Notes: generated by a model not told the origin, from the sequence alone. A DNA stretch of 64,000 nucleotides from Zootoca vivipara (GCF_963506605.1 NC_083279.1:56916001-56980000), one strand, 5' to 3'; shown: positions 1 through 61,084, counted from the stretch's first letter. Program-made: numbers and translations.

Positions 1-948
1 AGCCCCAGCACAGTCCCAAAGAAGAGGAAGCTGCATCCTGAACCTTCAGAAGGTCATTTGAAATTGCTAAAAGGTAACAAAGGTAACATATCTGATGCTG
101 CAAACAATCATAAGTCTTCTGCAGATGCCTTGTATGGTCCTGGGCTCAACCAGAAAGAATTGAAATTTAGCAGAACTGATGTTGAATTAAAATACCCTTC
201 AGGTCACGGTTCAAATAATGAAAGTGAAAATAGGAGTTGGTCTAGAGAAAGCAAAGGATTTAACGTGTTGAAACAACTGCTTCTGTCAGAAAATTGTGAA
301 AAAGACGTGCCTCAGCATAGGAATAATTCAGCAGTAACTGATGGCAAAAAGAAAGGAACAAAAAATAACCTCACAAATAACAGCAAAACTGAATTCAGTG
401 TCCCTTCAGTACATACACTAATGGGGAATCCTGGACAGCAAACCAATTGTTTGGATCACCGAACATTTCAATATTCAGTTGCAATGAGGAGTCCTGCCAG
501 TTCTCCCTTCACTGAACATTTGGGAGGCACAGTTTCATCAAAACCTGAATGTGACCAGTTTAGTGTTTGCCATGTACCTAGAGAAAGGGGGCCTATAAAA
601 TGGGTCATCACAGATACGGACAAAAATGAACATGAGCGAGATTCCCCAAGACTGACTAAAACTAATCCTATATTATATTACATGTTACAGAAAGGGGGGA
701 ATTCCATTAATATTCAGGAAGCACATGGCAAAGATGTTTGGAGTGATACGTCATTTACAGAACATTCCTCTGTTGTCACATTTAAGAAAGAGCTTTCGCC
801 TGTTGCAGAATGTAAAATGCCATTTCATAATGTAAGAAATACTTACAGTAGTCATTCAAGTAATAAAGTGTCCCTTCAACACAATGTGAATGGAAATGTA
901 TATGGACTCTTAGACAAAGTATTAACAATTAAAAAAGAACCAGAGTAA
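1..948 (+). CDS. NRIP1: Nuclear receptor-interacting protein 1 (RIP140), C-terminal part of coding exon, 5'-partial
   Basis: Frame 1 is open from base 1 (SPSTVPKKRK...) to TAA 946-948; the TTG at 58 is not the real start. The peptide has the recognisable RIP140 segments SKGFNVLKQLLLSENC (LxxLL, 268-282), GPIKWVITD, DSPRLTKTNPILYYMLQKGG (LxxML, 673-687) and the terminus VYGLL..VLTIKKEPE. Confidence 0.97.
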   Translation, partial: SPSTVPKKRKLHPEPSEGHLKLLKGNKGNISDAANNHKSSADALYGPGLNQKELKFSRTDVELKYPSGHGSNNESENRSWSRESKGFNVLKQLLLSENCEKDVPQHRNNSAVTDGKKKGTKNNLTNNSKTEFSVPSVHTLMGNPGQQTNCLDHRTFQYSVAMRSPASSPFTEHLGGTVSSKPECDQFSVCHVPRERGPIKWVITDTDKNEHERDSPRLTKTNPILYYMLQKGGNSINIQEAHGKDVWSDTSFTEHSSVVTFKKELSPVAECKMPFHNVRNTYSSHSSNKVSLQHNVNGNVYGLLDKVLTIKKEPE

Positions 949-15211: not shown

Positions 15212-16128
15212 AGCAGTTTGCACAGTGCATACTGAAATTGAAGGGTGTGAGAACGAAGCCCGGGCTTCTGCAATCTCCTTTGTTGCATGCCAAGTTCCAG
15301 AAATTTGGCTTCAAAACACAAGTGGGGCTTTCCCATATGGGACCCCATTCTCGAAAAAGGTTGTGCACAGGGTAGCCAAGAGTTATGAGTCTGAGTATTG
15401 CCATATGAATAATCAGTGTTTTGATTTTTGTTAAAAAATGAGGTACTGGGCCTGATGGGTGCCAGCAGAAAATGGCTGCCATGGGCAGCAAAATAAGAGG
15501 TACCAGGGCTCCATACCATTGGGTACTGTCACAAACAAAGCCTTGTGAATAACCACTCACCTAGTTACATGTGGGCTTCAATGCTCATACTTATTTTTCT
15601 TTTAAATCTACTTATTCTAAGAAAGTGTAGTCCATATATCTCAGGGATAACAAACAACATGTCCACCAGATAATGTTGGACTGCAACTCCCATCATCCAT
15701 TGGACATGGAAGGTGAGCTGATAAGAGTTGGGTTCCAACAACATCTGGAGGCTACCAAGTTGGCTATCCCCAATATAACACAATACTCCGTTTCTGACAG
15801 CAGCTTAGCAGGTTGCTTTGAAAGTGTACCAAACTCTCCAGTGCCTTGGTTGGGATGGGGAGCTAACAGACAACATGGAATACTTGAGACTAGGAATCTT
15901 GAATTAGTATCCATCCCCATTTAGTCTCTGTGGTGCACACAAATAAGTTTCAGGGGCTAAGAAAAAGGAGGCAACCCCATTAATTCACACCAACTCCATG
16001 GGATACTACAAACCCAGATAGTGTGTTTCAGGAGTGAAATATGCTGGACCTTGGACTATTTGGAGAAGGTAAGCAGTGGCCACAACCTTTTATGTGCAGT
16101 TAGGAATTCAAGGAGACAATATATTATC

Positions 16129-16856
16129 TTTTTTTTTTAAATGTTTTTTATTTATTTCAATCATTAAAAAACATACATATATTTACATACAAATTAAGAC
16201 AAAAAGAAACACCAAAGATACAATATATCATTTGATTTACATCTTAGCAATCAAAAAAAAAAATAGAAAGACACGGAAAAAGAAAAAGGAAAGATGAAAA
16301 AAAGGGAAGAAGAAGAAAAAGAAAAAAGAAAAAGAAACAGAAAAGGCGAGAAAAAAAATACAAAAATTACAAACAATACGTAAAATACCAACAACTTCCA
16401 GTCATCTCTCTGTAGCTAGTACTATTCGTTTTCATCATCCGCAAAATAAATTCCTTATTATCTATCTCTTTACCCTTCACCTTGGTTCGGTTTTGTCTGC
16501 TTGGGGTGTTATTTACTTAATTGTTTTTATATACTCATCAAAAATCCTCCATTCCTTTTTTATTCTTTGTCTTGTTTGCCCTCTAATTCTCCCAGTGGTT
16601 CTGGCTAGCTGTGAGTATTCTTTCATTAGTATTTGCCAATCTGTTATACTAGGGGTGTTTCTACTTTTCCAGTTCCTAGCGATCAGCACCCTCGCGGCTA
16701 CAATACCATACATTAATAATTTTCTATTTACATCTCCTATATCCTCCGGTATTATATTTAATAGGAACATTTCTGGTTTTTTCGTAATTTTACATTTTAA
16801 CATTCTCTTTAACTCTTCATAAATCTTCTCCCAGTATGTCCTTATCTCTGCACATT
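16129..16856 (-). mobile_element. 5'-truncated L1 LINE (ORF2 C-terminus + 3'UTR + poly(A))
   Basis: 19-bp TSD AAGGAGACAATATATTATC (16110-16128 / 16857-16875), T-run at 16129, and peptide KPEMFLL...AARVLIARNWKS..P...DW...W typical of the L1 ORF2 end. Confidence 0.92.
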
Positions 16857-18027
16857 AAGGAGACAATATATTATCATAGGACAATTCAACCCAAATGCCG
16901 CATTCACATTTCAGTCTATAACAAGGACTGAGTGGTGCAGAACAATCTAGCCTTGATAGAAGCTGAGGAAGAGAATGTAGCCTTTCATATAGGACACACC
17001 CCATGAGATGCAGCCTTTCTCCATGGCTTTCAAAAAGCAGGGAGTAGGTTTGCCAAATCCTGAAACCACTCCAATTACATTAATAAAAATAGATTTAATA
17101 TTTGCTGTCGCCAGTCAAAAGCTGCTGTCTGCCTTATTATTGTTGCTGACGCTGCCTGGAAAGGCAACCTTTCCCCTGCATTTTCCAGGAGCAAAATGTC
17201 ACATAAAAGGGACCCATCCGCTGCATTATGCATCTAAGAAGAAAGGTAGCCTAGTTTACTACACATTTTAAGCTCCAACCAAGGAGATCTGCCAGGCAAA
17301 GCCAGAACACCACGTAACCGACCTGAGCCCTTAATCTGTCCTGATAGCATAAGAAAGCCAGCACGGTCTTTCATAGTGAATGACTCCAGTTGGTATTTAA
17401 ATTTATGTGAAAAGAAATCAGCCTAAAAATATAACTTAAGTCTGATGTATTTTTCTAGGTTAGCTCTGCCTTATTTAGTCAGCTTCATTACATGCCCAGT
17501 GACATAAAACCAGGTGGCAGTTGACACACTAAACCACTCTAAGCAGGTCACCATCTACTCCAATGTCAATCATTTGCCCGGGGTCAGGAAATAGAACTAG
17601 GCCATGATTTCATTTCCGAAAAAAATAAGACTTGCCTTTGTTTCTTGTTAGTCTGATTCGCTTTGCACATTATTGGGCCATGTTCTAGCTGGAAAATGGG
17701 CAGGAAGAATTGTCTGGGGAAGGGAAAAGGAAGCCCTTTTCAAAGGCAAGTGGTTTGTAGGTGATCTTGGTTAAAAACATCTCCCTGCCTGTTTGTTGAT
17801 AAGGCTACTGAATGGGGCAAGTTAACAGTCACTTAGGACTATTTATTAATTAGCATTGCCTCTCCCTGCCTCCGGCAATAATCACTTCAAATTTCACACT
17901 GGAGCTCCTGTGATAAAATGAACGGATGTTGAAGGACTATGTAGCCAAATATATATTCTGCCTCAGATTTTCAGTGGTTTTGTTTTTATAAAAAAGGGAC
18001 TTCATTTGGTCTTCATTAACACAGGAT

Positions 18028-18270: not shown

Positions 18271-18300
18271 CATATCTGCTATCTTCACTATACTGTATAT

Positions 18301-18436
18301 CAGGCATCCCCAAACTTCGGCCCTCCAGATGTTTTGGACTACAATTCCCATCATCCCTGACCACTGGTCCTGTTAGCTAGGGATCATGGGAGTTGTAGGC
18401 CAAAACATCTGGAGGGCCACAGTTTGGGGATGCCTG
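18301..18436. mobile_element. 136-bp palindromic hAT MITE
   Basis: TIR caggcatccccaaact / agtttggggatgcctg and perfect TSD CTGTATAT (18293-18300 / 18437-18444). Confidence 0.95.
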
Positions 18437-18569
18437 CTGTATATCTTTCAGCAAATGCTGAAGGCACACTACTTTACCTTGCCCTTTGACACCCAAGATG
18501 TATGGATTTAGGACCCACCCAATTACTGTGACTATAATTTAACTGCTGGTGAAAGGTGGCAACACAATG

Positions 18570-19036
18570 CAGGGGTGTAGCAAGGAGGGCGTAGGGGGCG
18601 GGGCACCCCGGGTTCCACACTGGAGGGGGTGACACTCGGTGCGCCACAACTCTCAAGCCGAGTTCCGTGGCAGCGCCCGGTAAAAAGTCTCGCTTGGTGC
18701 CACGCGGCGGCTAGCTTCCAGCTGCCACTGCACCAAACAAGGCTTTCTTTTTACCGGGTGCCACCACGGCGCTCGGTTTGGGAGTCGCGGGGGGCACCCC
18801 GCAGCACAGCGTTGCACGCCGTCTGCCGTAAAAAGAAAGCCTTGCTTGGTGCAGCAGCAGCTGGAAGCTAGCCGCCGTGTTGCATTGAGCGAGACTTTCT
18901 TTTTACCGGAAGCCACCTCGGCACTTGGCTTGGGAGTTATGGGGGGGCACGCAGCGTTGCACGATGTCTGCGCATGCGCCAAACATTGCAATGCCCCACC
19001 CCTGGGTTTGCCGCCCCAGGTGCCGCTTTGGCTTCC
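18570..19036. mobile_element. GC-rich non-autonomous hAT-like element, right end in assembly gap
   Basis: Starts caggggtgtagc, is CpG-rich, has an internal inverted repeat, and shares subterminal motifs (ggggtgaca) with 61085-61436. Confidence 0.7.
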
Positions 19037-26702: not shown

Positions 26703-26838
26703 CAGGCTTCCTCGACCTCGACCCTCCAGATGTTTTGAGACTACAATTCCCAGCATCCCTGACCACTGGTCCTGCTAGCTAGGGATCATGGGAATTGTAG
26801 GCCAAAAACATCTGGAGAGCTGAGGTTGAGGAAGCCTG
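26703..26838. mobile_element. 136-bp palindromic hAT MITE
   Basis: TIR caggcttcctcgacctc / gaggttgaggaagcctg and TSD ATTTATGA / ATTTATGG. The interior matches 18301-18436. Confidence 0.93.
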
Positions 26839-36514: not shown

Positions 36515-37620
36515 TTTAATTCCAATTACTGTACTTTTTTTTAAAATCCAAACCACCTCTTTTTCAATTGTAAGATCTATGAGGCCATATGAACCAATGT
36601 GGCTTTCTGTCCATTGACACTTACTGCACTGAAACTGGAAAAGCCTCAAACACGAGCACTTCCCATTTGCTAACTAGATGAAGGAAATGAATGTATGTCA
36701 CTTTAAGAAGAGTGCCTTAATGAGAACAAATACACTTCCTAGTTTTTATATAAAGAAAAATGATCTGAATCCAACTTTTGAAGCAATGTAGCATACAGGT
36801 TTTACATTGATAATGGAAACAGAGATGGTTTGGTTAGAGATGTACAGAAAAGTCTGAAAATTAAGGACACTGAGGCAAAATTAATGGATCTCTTAGCAAA
36901 AATACTAAAGAAGGAAAGCTTTGGATCTGGAGTGTAGGGTAATATCACAGCTAAGAGTGTGACATATGAGCTAATCAGCTACTGGCTCAAATTTTCACTT
37001 TACTCACAAATGAACTACGTGGGCTCAAGCAAGCCACTATTTTTCAGTTTCATTCCTTCCTCACTCCTAACCACAATATGGGCATAGTGACATTTATTTT
37101 TAAATTGATTGTATCAATAGAAATTTATTTAAAAATTGATCTTATCTATCCCACTGTTCATCCTAGAAGATTTCAGGGTGGGTAACAACAGTTGAAGATA
37201 CGATTAAACAACACTTTAATTGTATAATAAACAAATTCACTGATGTCAGGGTAGCTAGCAACAATTTAAGTCCTTGATTGAGCTTAAAGAGCTGAGATAA
37301 TGTGTGTGAAGCACTTTGCCTGAACACTACCTCAATGTGATGCATTAATGCCAATAGAATGAACACTTGCATGTCACACACTTGACCCTCCCAACATGAG
37401 TCAAGTGTTTTCAGTACACGTCACGGCAACAACTGACCTGAACAGGGTTAGAGTCTACTGTGGGTGGAACTTTGTGGTGTGCTTCACTCATATACACCAA
37501 GGTAACCTAGCTCTGTTTTTCAAAGGTTTAGCATTGAGGGCTCTGGTCGACTTTTACAAGGTTGTGCATTGTTCTTTCAAATACTGTACCACTTTCTTAT
37601 AGATGGCAAGTAGTCATTTG

Positions 37621-37808
37621 CAGTGGTACCTCGGTTTATGAACACAATTGGTTCCAGAGGTCTGTTCATAAACTGAAGCATTCATAAACTGAAGCAAACT
37701 TTCCCATTGAAAGTAATGGAAAGTGAATTAATCCGTTCCAGATAGGTCCGCGGCGTTCGTAAACCGAAAATTCATAAACCGAGGTGTTCATAAACTGAGG
37801 TTCCACTG
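37621..37808. mobile_element. Tc1/mariner (Tigger/pogo-like) MITE
   Basis: TIR cagtggtacctcggttt / aaactgaggttccactg, with TA on the right and TG on the left. Confidence 0.9.
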
Positions 37809-37882
37809 TATATATAAAAAACCCTGCTTCTTTCATGCACATTGGTATAGTTTGCTAAGCTGAACCATGGCTTAATGCATAT

Positions 37883-37977
37883 CAAAGCTGTCAAGTTCTC
37901 CCCTTTTTTAAGGGAAATTCCCTTATGCTGAATCGGCTTCCTCACGAGAAAAGGGAAAACTTGACAGCTACGGTATG
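37883..37977. mobile_element. ~90-bp mini hAT element
   Basis: Near-identical to 62764-62853; TSD ATGCATAT (37875-37882 / 37978-37985). Confidence 0.88.
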
Positions 37978-39696
37978 ATGCATATGCATGAACATGCAGG
38001 TTCCCAGACAGGAGATCACAGCTGCTTTGCTCCTCCCTGGCCCTTTAGCTCAGAATGTGATTTAGGGTGGCCTGTTGTCCAGACCTAGGCTCATGGTTAA
38101 GCTTTCTCCTTCTTAGCCATGACTTATAGCCAGGGTTTATTTAGCTCATTTAGTGCTCTGCTGAGCTAAAGGGACCAAGGAGGAACATAGCAGGTGTGAG
38201 CTCCTCCCTGGGAATTTGCATGTTTGCAGACGTGCACTAAGCCATGGTTCAGTTTAGCGTAATATACCAATGTGTGAAACAAGCATATTTTTATGAATGA
38301 CTACTTGCCATCTATTTAAAAAAAAGTGGTATCAGCAACACAAGGCATACAGGAATGAACCTAATGTATAAGTGGTAAACATAAATTGCATTTATTTGAA
38401 AAATATAAAGACTTCTTCAATGCTGTGTGTTGATGTTAAACCTCTAAAGTTGGCTTACAGGAGACATTTCTTTTCCAAAGTTCAAAATACAAAGACAATA
38501 AAATGTGAAAGTCATTCCGATGTGACAACAGATTAAAGAGTATCCCTTTGTCACAAGGTTTTCATTCTTGTGGAATAGAATCACACTGGACTTTGCCTTT
38601 TATTTGAAATCTTACCTTTTAATAAGTGAACTTTTGAAATTACCTCAGCGAACAAAGGTTCCTCTTTTACAGTTAAACTTTTAACCCTTGAGGTTGAACT
38701 AGTGTAGGCCAAAGGAGAAAACCATCGTGTTTTCACTGAACTTTTTACCCTTTCAAAAAAAAATGCAGACAAGTTTAAAGTTCATACAGTGAGCAAGAGG
38801 TCTCTAGTGGGTATTTCTGGTATTATTAACTTCCTGACCTCAGATAATTAAAAGGGAACAGTGAAGGCAGTATAGACTCAGGCTCAACTTTGAACTTTTA
38901 ACCTCTCTTGCAAAACTATTTTGTGTACAAGTAGCATATACACTCAACCCATTTATTATTAACTTTCCTCAGAACTTGCATGCAAAGTGCAACCTATTTT
39001 CGGTATCAATCCAAAATGCTTTGTATTCTTGAATTCCTTAAGGGTTGGGTTTTATCTGGGGGAAAAATAAAATCTCCAATCAAAATAATACAGTAGGGAG
39101 TTGTTGTTTTAAATCTGGGGTTAGGAAGTACAGTATTGCTGGGAAAATAAAAAGGTTCTGATCCAGAGCCAAACTAGATGCGCAGCTGCTTCCAGATTGC
39201 TGCTATTTTGAGGGTGGCCTTCAATCATACACTGTCAAATTCAGCTTGCACAATTGAAGTGGATTTAGTGCTCTTGTGCAACAATCCACTTGTGCCCCAA
39301 ACCCAGACTTTTGCAGTAAGGCAAATGGGGAAAACCATTGGGAAGTGTGGGATAGCAATGGTTTGACATGATATATTGTAACCTCCATGGAAAGAAACAA
39401 TTAAAAAACAGCAGATGCTGTATAACTTCTGCACAACTTTTGTGAAAACAAACAAGGATGAATGCTCAATAAACAAGTTGTCCAGAAGAGCCCACAGTTG
39501 TGTGCTTTTCTTATGACAGGTTTTTTAAAATGAAAAACAAGGCTATTGCGGAATGTTTAAACTAAGGAGTGAAAGCAGTGCATGTATGTAGGGAAAGAAC
39601 CTACTTCACTCTGTTTCCCAGTGCCCTCCACTTAGGGCCTAATGACATGTGATGTTAATTGCATCACACCTACTCACAGCCACCACACTGTGGTAT

Positions 39697-42704: not shown

Positions 42705-43016
42705 CAGTCATACCTCGGTTTAAGTTTAAGTACTCCACGGACCCGCCTGGAACGGATTAATCCACTTTCCATTACTTTCAATGGGAAAGTTCACTTCAGG
42801 TTAAGTACGCTTCGGGTTAAGTACGGACTTCCAGAACCAATTACACTCATACCTTGGGTTAAGTACGCTTCAGGTTGAGTACTCCGCAGACCCATCTGGA
42901 ACAGATTAATCCACTTTCCATTACTTTCAATGGGAAAGTTTGCTTCAGGTTAAGTACACTTCAGGTTAAGTACAGACTTCTGGAACCAATTGTGTTTGTA
43001 AACCGAGGTACCACTG
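42705..43016. mobile_element. Tigger/pogo-like MITE with internal duplication
   Basis: TA TSD, TIR cagtcatacctcggttt / aaaccgaggtaccactg, and two tandem copies of ggattaatccactttccattactttcaatgggaaagtt. It is the reverse complement of the 37621 family. Confidence 0.9.
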
Positions 43017-44667
43017 TAACTAAATTAAGAGAAACAATAACAAATATTTCACACATGGCATATATTCATTTAATTATTTGAAGTACTTTTATGCTGTTCT
43101 TCAGTAGAAAAGGCTGCAGAGCTGCTTACAGATAAATATCAAAAATTATAGTTTCCATCTTTGGGCTTATAATCTACAAGACATAACCTAAAAGGAAAAA
43201 GGGATGGGGACAGTGAAGGAAAATAGCATACACATGGGTAGATTAGAATCCCTGAAGGCATATACCATAATAAAATTTGTTTGCTTTTAAAGTGCTAGGA
43301 GACTCAGTATTTTCAACTGATTAAACTGGACTCAGGTATATTATCCTGCACTTCTGCCTGAGGTCTTTGTTAGTTTTTTAACTTGCAGAGAGTCAGGTAC
43401 TGCAACATCTCTCTTCTGACAGGTAGCCTTTTGACCCAGAGGAGGTGTTTGTTTTGTTTTGTTTTGCAAATTCCTCCATTCTCTTGCAGACCCCCCCTCC
43501 CCAAGTCATCTCCTGTACAATTTTAAATGGTCCCCCAATCCTTTGGAGAGGACGGTGGAGGGCTGGAGTGGGCTCCAGAGCGAAGGCTGAAACAGCAACC
43601 CTCACTCCTCCGGCCTTTATTCTCATGGAAGCTTCTGCTGGATCAAATTGCCTTCTGACAGTGGTGGGACACAATTATGATACATTAAATGGGAGTTTAC
43701 AAGCTTTACTTTAATGAGAATGGGATTGACTTTTGTTTTGTCACATCTCTGAAATTCCACTGGAGAATTCTTATGCGCATAAGGCTATGAACAAGAAAGG
43801 TTCAAACTTGTGTATTATTTGCAGTGGTTTTATTTTGCTTTACTTAGTGTTTGATCTCCAAGGTGCATTTACACATCTCTCTCCCTTTCAAGGTAGCACA
43901 CCCTACAGTGCATAGGAGCAGGGACTGGTTTCGGCAATGTGAAGCTGACTAAAGTTGATGCTGACGCTGCCCTTGTCTGAAATCACTGCGAGAGGAGAGC
44001 AGCTATTATTAAAGGAATTCAAAGGGCACTTGACATAATCGGGTCAGCCAGAGGTGCATAAACAAGAAGCCAAAGAGGACGCACTACACAGAAATGTGTC
44101 TTTTGGGTATGTACCTGGAAGACACACACTGTGAAGCTTTTATTCACACCTGCTTGCATGACGATTCTCTCTTCTTCTTCTTCTCTTCACCCCCAGCCCT
44201 GTTTTATGTTTTATCAGCCAAGCAATTTTATTCATGGCAACCTGACATGCGAAAGGACATTTTAAAAAAATGACTACCCAGTTCTTAAGCAAATCTTTCT
44301 ATTATGGTTATCTTCATAGCAGGAAGATTTCCTTATCCAGGCAGCTTAATGGGTAGGTACCCCCACAATTGTGTCCTGCCTGACAGGAAGAAAGAGGCAT
44401 TTCAGTTTCGTCATGGATGAAGGAAGGGAGGAGATGGAGTTAGAAGAGATGATGTAGGTTGTTCTCAATCCCTTAGAAAGGAATTGGCTTCTGCTGAGAC
44501 AATGTATTTACTCTGAGGTTTTCTTCACTTTATCGAAATGTTTACAGTACAATGTTTATACTTTATAGATGCTCATTTTGGGTTGTGCAAATACACTATT
44601 CTTAATGTACCAGCTTCTTGGAGATAAACTTAAAATGAGATTGTCCATGAATCAGGCATTGGGCAAC

Positions 44668-57704: not shown

Positions 57705-58314
57705 TTATACTGTATATGACTAGATACTCCAACCCAACCCTCCTGTGTTCCAAGGCCATCAATGAAACAGTTGGTGCCATTTTTATCAACACATCTTAAC
57801 AGTATCTAAGGGCTTCACTGTGGAAAAGGTTGTGGAAAGAATCTTCATTACATTCCTGAAATGAACACTCTGATGATCTGTTGTGGTAGTGATGTCTCCT
57901 ACAGCCCCCCCAAAAAACAAACAAACAAACAAGCATACTGGATGGCTTCAAGAATATGCAAAAGGTCTCAGTTCTGCTGAGTTCTGCCAATTTGTGTACA
58001 CCCACAGCGAACTGTAGAAGCAATCCTGTCTTCTGCAATTCACACAGGTTTGGGTAGAACGGAACATTCCATTCTCTGTCAAAATGTCACAGAGTGGAAC
58101 AGACTATTCTGTACTCGCCTAATCCTCTAGGGGCAGGTCACATTTGCAGGGTAGAATCTGCAGGTGGGAAAGTAATGTGTTTAATTCTACCCCACTCCTC
58201 CAGTTCTCTCCCAAATGCCCCCCCACACTATAGAATGTCTCATGCCTGCAACATGCTTCCACAAAGATCAATGCAGTACTTGTGTTATGAGATTAAGCTG
58301 CTAGACTACATTTT

Positions 58315-58520
58315 CAGTGAGGAATAGTGGTTAGTGTCGAACTAGGGCCAGGAGACCAGGTCATGAAGCTCACTGGGTGACCTTGGGCCACTCACTGCCT
58401 TTCAGCCCAACCCACCTCACAGGATTGTTGTGGGAGTTAAATGAAGACGAGGGAGAACCATGTATGCCACTTTGTGCTCATTGGAGAAAAAAATAGTGGG
58501 ATATAAATGGAATAAATAAA
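58315..58520 (+). mobile_element. CORE-type SINE (Squam3/MIR-like)
   Basis: A-box-like tagtggttag, core ctgggtgaccttgggcca.tcact...cctcacagg.ttgttgtg, and aataaataaa tail. Confidence 0.8.
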
Positions 58521-58547
58521 GTGTATATTGGTAGTTGTACCATTTGC

Positions 58548-60628
58548 TTTTTTTAAACATACTTTTTATTAATTTTACAAAATACAAAAAAAAACCCGGT
58601 ACATACATAAACACCTTTTCCACCTCCTTCCTACCCACCCACATGGGTCCTCCCCTGCCACAGAAGTATCCCATGTATGTGAACAGTCAGAGATGGTCCA
58701 TTTTATGCTTGGATTTCTGTCCTCCTCCCCCTCCCCTGACCCCAAAGCCCCCCCCTGCCACCAGGGAGCTCCAGCAAACCAGGGCAGTACGCAGGAGGCC
58801 ATCCATCCAACCATCTATTGTCATACCAAAAAAAGAGAAAAATAGAAATAGGAAAAAAGAGAAAAAAGAAAGGGCAAAAAAAGAGAAAAAAACAATACAA
58901 AACAGAAAAATTTTTCTTACATTCATAATTGTAAAACCATATTTTGTGGGCTTCCCCTCCCCCCCCTTCCCCGGTTTTCATCCCTTTTTTATCATCTGCA
59001 ACAGTTTCTTACTTTATAAAAATACACCTTTGTATCTTATACAACTTATAAATCAATTGTTAACATTTTCATCTAATATTCAAATCACTGAAAAATCAAA
59101 CTCCCATTTTATCTTCCCGTGCCTAATTTTTACTCCCTCTATAAGCCTCCATATTTTCACATTTTTCCAAAATCCATTCACTTTTAAAACTATAACTATT
59201 CTCAATTTAACCTTACATCCCCGATTACCGGCTCCACCCCACCAATCCAGCAAATTCCATAATCAGCAGACCAGTTATAAACCTGTTAATCCATCCTTAT
59301 AATCACAACATCACTTTCCCTTCACCCCACCCCCTGTTTACAGTCTTTTGCCATCCAGGCCACCATACAGGACCCCTGAATTTCTTCTCTTCTCTGCATA
59401 TTTTTTCCTTCTTCCCTGTGGACGTTCTGGAGTTCCAATAATACCAATCGTGCCCCCCTCAAAGGCAGGGCACTCCATCCAACTTTTTGTAGAGTAAAGT
59501 CATCATTTTTTTCGTGGTGTGCTTCATTTTGTGTTGAATCATCACAGTCCTCATCTTCATCTTTTCCTTCCAAATCACAGTCACCATCATTGTCATTCTC
59601 ACATTCATCTTTTTCAGTGTCAAAAGCTTCATCTTCTAAAAAATCATATTCTGCCATCACCATCTGAAATTGTTGCTGTAACTCTTGCCGTCGTGTCTCC
59701 TCTTGACATAGCTCTATTCTTGTTTCCCACATTAAGGTCAAAACAGACCGCTGGAACTCAGGGGAACACTTTTTTGTTGACATAGTTCAATCCTGCCAAG
59801 GTCAAAACTTGTCACGTGGGGTGGAATATGATCACAGTTTATTTTCTCGACTCCATTTTAACAAACTGGCTGCATTCTTCAAGTCTTATTAACAATAAAG
59901 TTCGAACTCACATTTCACAAACATTTAAACCAAAAAAGAAATTCCACAAAGTCCAGAAATACAAAGTGAAATAAAAATTGACTTATAAATCCTGATCAAC
60001 TCACTGGGTTGTCTGGGCTGCCGGCTCCCGAGGAAAAGAAAGGTTTTTCTTAGTCTTTACCTCTTGCTGCAGGGCTCACAACCACAGTCTCTCTCTCTCC
60101 CCTTTCACCCTGCATCAAAGGGGAGATTCTCTTTGATGCCTTTGAGGGATCCTTTTGAATTGCAAATCTTCTGTTTACGGCTTCGGGTTTCTATTTACTG
60201 TCTCTTTTGTTGCCGTGGGGGGGGGGGTGGCTTCCTCTTTTCTCCCCTCTCTCCCAGATCCAAATTGTTTTATAATCCAAATCGTGAGGTTACTTACAGT
60301 CTTGTTTCCAATCGTTTTATTTTCGGAAGAATCCAGCGCTCTCCGCCTTCGGCTTGAAGCTTCTCCCTGCTAGAATAACGTTGCCGCTCAAAATGCCCCC
60401 CGCGACTTCTACCCTCCTCGCTCCGGAGCTCTTATTAGAGCTAGCCGAAGGGTTGGGGAGTCCGGATTGGGGCTGTGCCGAGCAAATTTGCCCCCGGGAC
60501 GCCCTTCCCGAGGTTCTATGGGGCGCAGCGTCGCTCTCGCTGCCCTCCCCACTCCTAGCAGGGACGGGCCGTCTCGGAGACGAGACGAAACCCCGCCGAT
60601 CGGCGCTGGCGCTGAACCCGGAAGCCCC
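58548..60628 (-). mobile_element. Full-length non-autonomous L1-like retroelement
   Basis: 18-bp TSD GGTAGTTGTACCATTTGC (58530-58547 / 60629-60646), CpG-rich 5' end starting GGGGCTTCCGG, AATAAA plus A-tail at the 3' end, and no EN/RT motifs. Confidence 0.85.
59322..59783 (-). CDS. 153-aa acidic / predicted coiled-coil ORF inside the retroelement, function unknown
   Basis: ATG-initiated open frame directly after the 5'UTR, with an E/Q-rich helical segment then a D/E-rich tract. No family recognised. Confidence 0.4.
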   Translation of the reverse strand: MSTKKCSPEFQRSVLTLMWETRIELCQEETRRQELQQQFQMVMAEYDFLEDEAFDTEKDECENDNDGDCDLEGKDEDEDCDDSTQNEAHHEKNDDFTLQKVGWSALPLRGARLVLLELQNVHREEGKNMQRREEIQGSCMVAWMAKDCKQGVG

Positions 60629-61084
60629 GGTAGTTGTACCATTTGCGCCCCACTTTCAGAATCCTATATTAGAACACAGTGAGGCAGCCCTTTTCTGATG
60701 TGAAGACTACAAATGCCTTGCATCAAATTTCCACCAGACATCTTAGTTTACTGGTACATGATGAAAAATGATAATGCTGTATAATCTCTGTGGTTTCTGC
60801 AAAATACAATTTCATTCCCGACGACACATTTTTCACAGAAGGATTCTGCCATTATCAGCTTCTCATATATTGCAGGAACTTACTTTCCAGTTCAATTCTC
60901 CTTCATGTTTTCGAATGGGAAGGAATAAAGCTGTAATATAGTATCTATACATGAGAAGAGGCTTCTCGGGGCAGCCCACAGAGCAGGTTAGAGAACAATT
61001 TTTCTGATGAGAACTGTGTTTGCTCAAGGGTAATTTGTTGGGGTCCACATGTTGGCAATGCGAAGGGCCATTGGTGGGTGCAGC

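Follow-up and report, generated by a model that had tools for sequence, protein, structure and literature searches.

The locus described here raises the question of how a unit that has the ends of an L1 retrotransposon, and neither endonuclease nor reverse transcriptase (RT), comes to carry a protein of its own, and what this protein may do for it. It lies on the minus strand of the window, by which we mean the whole analysed stretch of 64,000 nt of Zootoca vivipara DNA, and the original prediction of a 2.08-kb unit enclosed by a perfect 18-bp target site duplication (TSD) was borne out (Table 1). Its first bases are GGGGCTTCCGG. The 5' end is CpG-rich, as had been stated: module A, the first 331 nt, contains 32 CpG (observed/expected 1.03, GC content 0.62) and is likely to be an internal Pol II promoter. 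The whole leader of the window copy measures 845 nt. The ORF behind it had been called the only one starting with ATG, which is true for ORFs longer than 100 aa on the sense strand; shorter ATG frames exist upstream of it and in the 3' UTR, the latter (79-92 aa) differing between copies. An antisense frame of 255 codons (58535-59302, plus strand) was rejected, since it ranges from 67 to 220 aa among copies. At the 3' end the predicted length of approximately 770 nt, the U-rich tract and the AATAAA were found as described, but the A tail is short, with only 7 A.

Long hairpins are predicted in the last ~270 nt of the 3' UTR (z -6.5 for the window copy) and also in module A. Compensatory support for them is nearly absent, with almost no two-sided changes and pair changes that are one-sided. 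The 3' hairpins are formed by pyrimidine-rich and then G-rich arms before the poly(A) signal (58570-58835, minus strand); z for this region is -6.5, -3.4 and -0.4 in three copies, with variation mostly from G-C to G-U, and a related block is present twice in some sister lineages (see below).

Table 1. Parts of the element and its flanking duplication, in window positions.
Feature	Position	Strand	Remark
Element unit	58548-60628	minus	2,081 nt
5' copy of the 18-nt TSD	60629..60646	minus	exact duplication
3' copy of the 18-nt TSD	58530..58547	minus	exact duplication
5' module A, CpG island	60298..60628	minus	starts GGCTTCCGG like lizard clade-1 L1s (PMC5381506, passages cited)
GTAAGT, splice-donor-like motif at the module boundary	60292..60297	minus	leader comparison
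Remaining leader	59784..60291	minus	five upstream ATGs opening frames of 1-21 codons
Conserved CCTT(G/A)..AG motif	59793..59801	minus	7-11 nt upstream of the start codon
ORF, 153 aa plus stop	59322..59783	minus	purifying selection on an orphan protein
Codons 1-48	59640..59783	minus	conserved N-terminal helix (predicted)
Codons 49-97	59493..59639	minus	acidic tract, predicted disordered, in-frame indels
C-terminal motif W-x-x-K-x-x-[RK]-K-G-V-G-stop	59325..59357	minus	kept across lineages
3' UTR	58548..59321	minus	774 nt, G-rich and U-rich tracts
Poly(A) signal and A tail	58548..58570	minus	AATAAA 58570-58565, A tail 58554-58548

The genome (1.44 Gb in 48 contigs) harbours about a thousand copies of this unit, ~960 by tight-motif counts, which agrees with the claim of a multi-copy family with its own small protein. 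The counts were 963 for the 3' motif (controls 0), 863 for the ORF start (2) and 608 for the 5' end of module A (0); type-B 5' ends are left out of them, and the motifs differ in sensitivity. All 40 scored genome matches were near full length at 97-100%, and 5' truncation occurs occasionally among the copies. A duplication of its own, 10-20 nt long, was found at 29 of 30 young loci (L030 has none, and that of L010 is A-rich and weak) and a duplication also at all 20 older loci; its length was 14-21 nt in 60 of the 66 measured. Insertion sites are T/AAAA-like, the first TSD base being obscured by the A tail. TSDs that are long and variable, together with an A tail and such a site preference, are established marks of L1 target-primed reverse transcription, and intact L1s exist in this genome, an ORF2 frame of more than 1200 aa being present in 22 of 43 sampled L1 loci. 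Taken together, this strongly argues that the family is mobilised by L1. The window copy differs by 0.6% from its nearest relatives, and the youngest copies differ by 0.6-1.1%. Thus, the window element is a young copy, as had been proposed, of an old and diverse family.

Two arrangements were noted among the loci. L015 and L019 (G000:C18, 9.0 and 8.0 Mb) have the same flanks and TSD and represent a segmental or assembly duplicate, and L019 was left out. At L191 (G000:C5, 11.42 Mb) two copies of different subfamilies, one of them apparently 5'-truncated, lie ~1 kb apart in opposite orientation.

Other classes of elements were considered. A SINE was rejected, because Rfam gave no match near the gathering score for a SINE head (best E 0.33) and the ORF is under selection; an LTR element, ERV or TRIM was rejected, because the unit contains no terminal repeat pair and the TSDs are mostly 14-21 nt long. 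In a check for processed pseudogenes (150 candidates scored per genome search), all matches examined were copies of the element.

The relation to L1 itself was analysed with 43 clade-1 L1 loci of this genome, spanning ~47-100% ORF1 identity, a sample that does not include other L1 clades and Tx1. The termini of these L1s match the lizard clade-1 consensus as given in the cited passages of PMC5381506. BLASTN and TBLASTX of the element against the 43 loci returned low-complexity tracts only, the ORF1 and ORF2 profiles built from them gave no signal in its six frames, and on eight family copies the ORF2 HMM reached E 3 at best. An autonomous L1 was therefore rejected, in agreement with the predicted lack of endonuclease and RT. 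Shared with L1 are the first ~10 nt, the general layout and low-complexity tracts, and module A shows one weak 125-nt match to the leader of L145 (z 5.3; among 32 L1 leaders). No L1 family sharing alignable UTRs with the element was found among those sampled. An internally deleted (bipartite) LINE was rejected since the 5' and 3' parts align to no one of the 43 loci, and with ~960 copies the element is not a single-copy deletion of an L1 either.

The prediction had also named HAL1 as a known ORF1-only parasite of L1 and had suggested that the protein could be a remodelled ORF1 coiled coil, a suggestion to which the comparison with ORF1 lent no support. In the ORF1 profile of 43 proteins the real ORFs scored below shuffled ones (best -0.4 vs 6.8 bits), and hhalign of the family protein against ORF1 gave a probability of 0.1-0.4%; the absence of an L1 ORF1 RRM or CTD was as predicted. 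Since Pfam PF02994 also misses the true ORF1s of this genome, it is the genome-specific profile that decides here. (At least 150 matches were obtained with the genome's own ORF1 and none with PF02994; the Pfam model misses lizard clade-1 ORF1.) HAL1 is defined as encoding only ORF1p in the cited passages of PMC5753468. The element is TSD-flanked, A-tailed and without ORF2, but its single ORF is not L1 ORF1p and we do not file it as HAL1. These comparisons set it apart both from HAL1 and from deletion derivatives of the L1s sampled.

An extreme form of HAL1 deserves separate mention, in which a coiled-coil fragment co-assembling with ORF1p trimers would be all that is left of the ORF1 from an L1 or Tx1 lineage that is extinct or outside our sample. 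The protein occupies the position of ORF1, after a 0.8-0.9 kb leader that starts like that of clade-1 L1s, it contains an acidic stretch and a long helix in which the hydrophobic residues are spaced roughly in heptads, and all known protein-coding non-autonomous LINEs carry ORF1p according to the cited passages of PMC5786205. Nevertheless we consider this origin unlikely, given the profile and hhalign results above, a conserved helix of only ~40 residues without RRM or CTD, and a weak BLASTP match to ORF1 (E 0.24) that fits derived rather than older residues.

Two observations on L1s of this genome may be added. The predicted true L1 at 16129-16856 of the window is real: a 5'-truncated L1 with its own duplication (16110-16860, minus strand) matches at 100% the 3' end of L043, a full-length L1 in which ORF1 and ORF2 are intact; this L1 family is therefore young. 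In another L1, an AATAAA/A-rich stretch like the 3' end of our element is located between ORF1 and ORF2 (L141:2987-3030, oriented); internal polyadenylation giving an ORF1-only RNA is possible there.

L228, one locus among the 20 retrieved with the 5' motif, has module A in common with the window element (81%), while its body does not align. It holds a 131-aa ORF that is homologous to the window ORF (hhalign 96.8%, E 2e-10); its protein has at least 86 matches in the genome, and that of a more distant member at least 90. Of 50 sister loci, 27 could be delimited by TSDs. These elements are 1.9-2.8 kb long, have the same first bases and leaders of 810-900 nt, and gave no ORF1 or ORF2 signal (best E 0.2 with the ORF2 HMM). 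On protein homology and shared layout the family is thus a superfamily with several RT-less lineages, in which the protein is 125-165 aa long and the sister proteins are 16-41% identical in amino acids to that of the window. L228 itself (G000:C4, about 92.10 Mb) adjoins L1 3' fragments and has a flanking duplication of ~57 nt, which is long and was read by eye. Short pieces at ~90% or better were also found in contigs of two other organisms (depth <5, weak), one of which covers the ORF end without gaps at the same weak depth.

Alignment of 28 proteins revealed M1, T3, F10 and W19 to be invariant in all of them. The C-terminus [RK]KGVG-stop is also kept across lineages, a motif overstated by our C-terminal table, since only proteins matching GV[G/R]-stop were collected for it. 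Between lineages without alignable DNA, G9, F10, V14, L15, L18 and I23 are preserved via different codons, and omega across lineages is 0.47 in the first 41 codons (p 1.6e-10), which together argue for constraint at the protein level. No synonymous change was seen at codons 1-3, at E20 (the codon after W19) and at the V of GVG; this points to a nucleotide-level constraint as part of the conservation, and the C-terminal motif may be partly of this kind. AF2 predicts one confident helix (pLDDT 89-97 over residues 11-50) followed by disorder (pTM 0.29). Since the net charge is -20 to -26 in the window lineage and -11 to +10 in sister lineages, acidity is not a conserved trait. This weakens the earlier idea of an acidic nucleic-acid mimic, of which the acidic tract remains for the window lineage only. 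Judged by the alignment, the conserved traits are the N-terminal helix and the last residues.

No relative of this protein was found elsewhere. A word search of 5.8 billion proteins, with the single protein, with longer proteins and with a deeper alignment, and a HMMER search of 1.84 billion representative proteins with a shallow 10-sequence alignment as query revealed no homologue. Pfam returned nothing above cut-off, with scattered sub-threshold compositional matches; the PDB contained no homologue by sequence (best E 1.6) or by Foldseek (best E 9.8), and the ESM Atlas none, the best values of 0.77 and 0.91 belonging to unnamed clusters with low recognition. Full-text literature searching, which mostly does not reach subscription papers and supplements, found no description of the family. 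Thus, the protein collections searched lack a family that has about a thousand copies in the genome.

The ORF is intact in all 29 youngest copies, in 103 of 120 copies overall and in 27 of the 39 that are absent from the protein top lists. Among the intact ones are copies at 76-81% nucleotide identity. The same start and stop are used by subfamilies at 76-87% nucleotide identity, whose ORF lengths (134-164 aa) differ by whole codons. A first selection test with 55 copies was not significant (omega 0.72, p 0.08). We then counted changes on the internal branches of a 110-copy tree, from which the 10 of 120 copies with short or rearranged leaders are left out and which, because modules are exchanged, represents more than one history. 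There were 101 synonymous, 144 nonsynonymous and 0 stop changes, with 22 stops expected from the flank spectrum (omega 0.57, p 1.4e-5). The +1 control frame falls short of stops as well (12 vs 36 expected), so the flank-based expectation runs high; plain kappa nulls predict ~12 stops vs 0 (P(0) 2e-6 to 7e-6) and give omega of 0.40-0.52. Off-register control frames gain stops and have omega of 0.9-2.4, and the in-register antisense frame, which mirrors the low omega but gains 22 stops, was rejected. Codon-model runs with intact ORFs only (97 unique) yielded an ML omega of 0.56 overall (p 1.6e-9), 0.50 for the helix (p 1.5e-4) and 0.35 for the acidic part (p 4e-10), while the C-terminal third in the window lineage was indistinguishable from 1 (0.82, p 0.2). 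On tip branches of copies not chosen by protein, 2 stops were found vs ~12 expected. This points to a large number of source copies, in each of which the frame has to be open. Most single-copy frameshifts fall in an A homopolymer near codons 91-93 and could be due to slippage or assembly error.

With the frame kept open and amino-acid changes depleted, the ORF is under purifying selection and hence very likely translated. Decay of the ORF among copies (dN/dS ~1) would have spoken against the prediction; instead, the copies preserve it, with omega of 0.4-0.6. It is hardly conceivable that the ORF is incidental in a non-coding retroposon and intact only because copies are young. The youngest copies are indeed very similar and the protein has no database homologue, but the same start and stop are kept at 76% nucleotide identity and at 16-41% protein identity, internal branches are free of stops, and the off-register frames gain them. 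A subtler alternative is that selection acts on translation as such and on RNA signals rather than on a function of the protein; the open frame would then stabilise or export the RNA and put it on ribosomes. This would account for stops being avoided much more strongly than amino-acid changes, for an omega that is only 0.4-0.6, for invariant codons at both ends and for a protein mostly predicted to be disordered. We regard it as quite improbable, because six helix residues are kept via different codons in lineages whose DNA does not align and because omega is significantly below 1 in both the helix and the acidic part.

Two 5' modules of ~330 nt, A and B, occur on different bodies in the window lineage and in sister lineages, and have therefore been exchanged. 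A GT(A/G)AGT word is present at +317..331 in 34 of 37 leaders, which are related sequences and not independent. Splicing from this word to CCTT(G/A)..AG would remove the upstream ATGs, which, together with the middling start context, speak against efficient scanning. The base before AG is often A or G, which is poor for an acceptor, and the motif may be acceptor-like or a translation signal. Neither contigs nor the raw reads from three RNA runs, analysed to ~6% of each run and with low depth over the first 330 nt, contained a spliced joint, and no spliced genomic copy was found, the one candidate being a point variant. Matches to the junction pattern in the genome numbered 2 vs 3 in the control, neither related to the element, and none of the indexed holders of the stretch is recorded as RNA. 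The idea that lizard L1s generally have an intron in the 5' UTR was rejected: with a looser pattern, a donor-like word was found at 200-450 in 7 of 32 leaders. The 5' UTR of human L1 has a conserved donor that is retained within a RUNX3 promoter site, as described in the cited passages of PMC5860796, and by this precedent the donor here may also be kept as part of a promoter site. Protection by introns from HUSH is independent of the 5' splice site in the cited passages of PMC8770142, and so does not explain the donor-like motif.

Element RNA was detected in three raw runs (453, 430 and 793 element reads of about 7.5 million each), with the whole element covered. The reads are mostly 90-99% alike and thus come from many copies. 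In two runs those of the 5' half have mostly one orientation, corresponding to sense RNA if strandedness is as usual. One contig passes through both flanks of a copy, so that host read-through contributes. A second read-derived motif was not found in the genome. At 58300-58407, immediately downstream of the element, the window contains a common short repeat, SINE-like, with many RNA reads that have varied loose ends. Short inverted-repeat units resembling MITEs, some of them repeated in the window, are located at 18296-18441, 18644-18898, 26703-26838, 37618-37769, 42719-43019 and 37838-38274.

What could the protein do? We lean towards the view that this RT-less retroposon family, probably copied by L1, keeps an orphan protein that works on the very mRNA encoding it and thereby captures the L1 machinery. 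The outer steps of such a cycle appear highly probable: a multi-copy family with long variable TSDs, an A tail, L1-like first bases and no endonuclease or RT would be transcribed by Pol II from its CpG-rich 5' module, which is swapped between subfamilies like L1 promoters, and its RNA would be inserted by L1 ORF2p through target-primed reverse transcription. Translation of the ORF, given its open frame and depleted amino-acid changes, we hold to be no less probable. Selection would then quite likely act in cis: a diffusible protein could be provided by hundreds of intact copies, and yet broken ones have almost no descendants. Indeed, 40 loci picked by 5' or 3' motifs comprised 34 full-length members of the window lineage, one sister, one internally deleted and four partial elements, and no ORF-less subfamily was found among them.

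The step of capture itself is speculative, and we put it forward tentatively. The N-terminal helix would leave the ribosome first, tethered by a variable linker of 90-120 residues, and would bind L1 ORF1p, ORF2p or a cofactor, while the conserved C-terminus may slow termination. An N-terminal helix, a linker tolerant of length changes and a conserved stretch before the stop codon would fit a nascent chain tethered to its mRNA. Alu uses SRP RNA to overcome the cis-preference of L1. In the most specific form of our proposal, a long-lived squamate retroposon superfamily, as a distinct class of LINE parasite, would have replaced ORF1 and ORF2 with a cis-acting adaptor protein, the helix of which grabs the L1 RNP while tethered and so overcomes this preference, and a conserved, weakly used 5' intron may split its RNA into one form for translation and another for copying; as a whole, this version is doubtful.

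Alternatively, the protein could serve in counter-defence and shield the element, and perhaps L1, from silencing by the host, acting at the locus or in the cell and not on the L1 particle. The linker changes fast and 5' modules have been exchanged repeatedly across lineages, as in an arms race, a host protein would be a fitting partner for a short helix with invariant F and W, and no L1 partner was found. However, a diffusible factor is a shared good, and ORF-less derivatives should have amplified, while none was present among the 40 loci chosen independently of the ORF, and of 963 motif counts 863 extend to the ORF start; further, there is no sign of omega above 1 overall. A counter-defence role therefore seems unlikely to us, and a protein capturing L1 in cis is the reading with which we proceed.

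The family is of interest because an abundant and recently active vertebrate element keeps an unrelated protein under selection across many lineages, which implies an undescribed function in retrotransposition, either in taking L1 enzymes in trans or in evading host silencing. How passengers overcome the cis-preference of L1 is a long-standing question, and a 2-kb element, a helix of 40 residues and two invariant aromatic residues make it testable. Kilobase-sized passengers of L1-clade machinery are represented by SVA in primates and Sadhu in Arabidopsis, and neither is known to carry a conserved protein under purifying selection.

The comparisons with described LINE relatives are based on the passages of the respective sources cited here. 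HAL1 of mammals is likewise non-autonomous, with one ORF, no RT and L1-type ends (PMC5753468, PMC5786205), but encodes L1 ORF1p, while the 125-165 aa protein of our family has no detectable ORF1 homology, RRM or CTD. Kojima 2018 names HeT-A, HAL1 and Ag-Sponge as the non-autonomous LINEs that code for a protein, which is ORF1p in every case (PMC5786205). HeT-A (Jockey) and Ag-Sponge (CR1) also lack RT, and their single protein, presumed to enter the machinery of the partner, is the ORF1p of the parent clade (PMC5786205), whereas here the protein is an orphan and the parent is unrecognisable. The bipartite RIME, NARTc and Bov-A resemble the element in Pol II transcription, probable in its case, and in LINE-like ends and lack of RT, but have no ORF and derive from RTE, Ingi, Vingi or R2 by internal deletion (PMC5786205), while in our element the middle codes and the ends match no sampled L1. 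With clade-1 L1s of lizards it shares the 5' terminus (G/A)CTTCCGGT, a long CpG-rich leader, a U-rich 3' UTR, AATAAA with an A tail, and long TSDs (PMC5381506 and the 43 loci sampled here); it differs from them in having neither ORF1p nor ORF2p and in UTRs that are unalignable beyond the termini and low-complexity tracts. Finally, 5' UTRs of anole clade-1 L1s were mostly not replaced (PMC5381506), in contrast to the 5' modules of this superfamily, which are exchanged.
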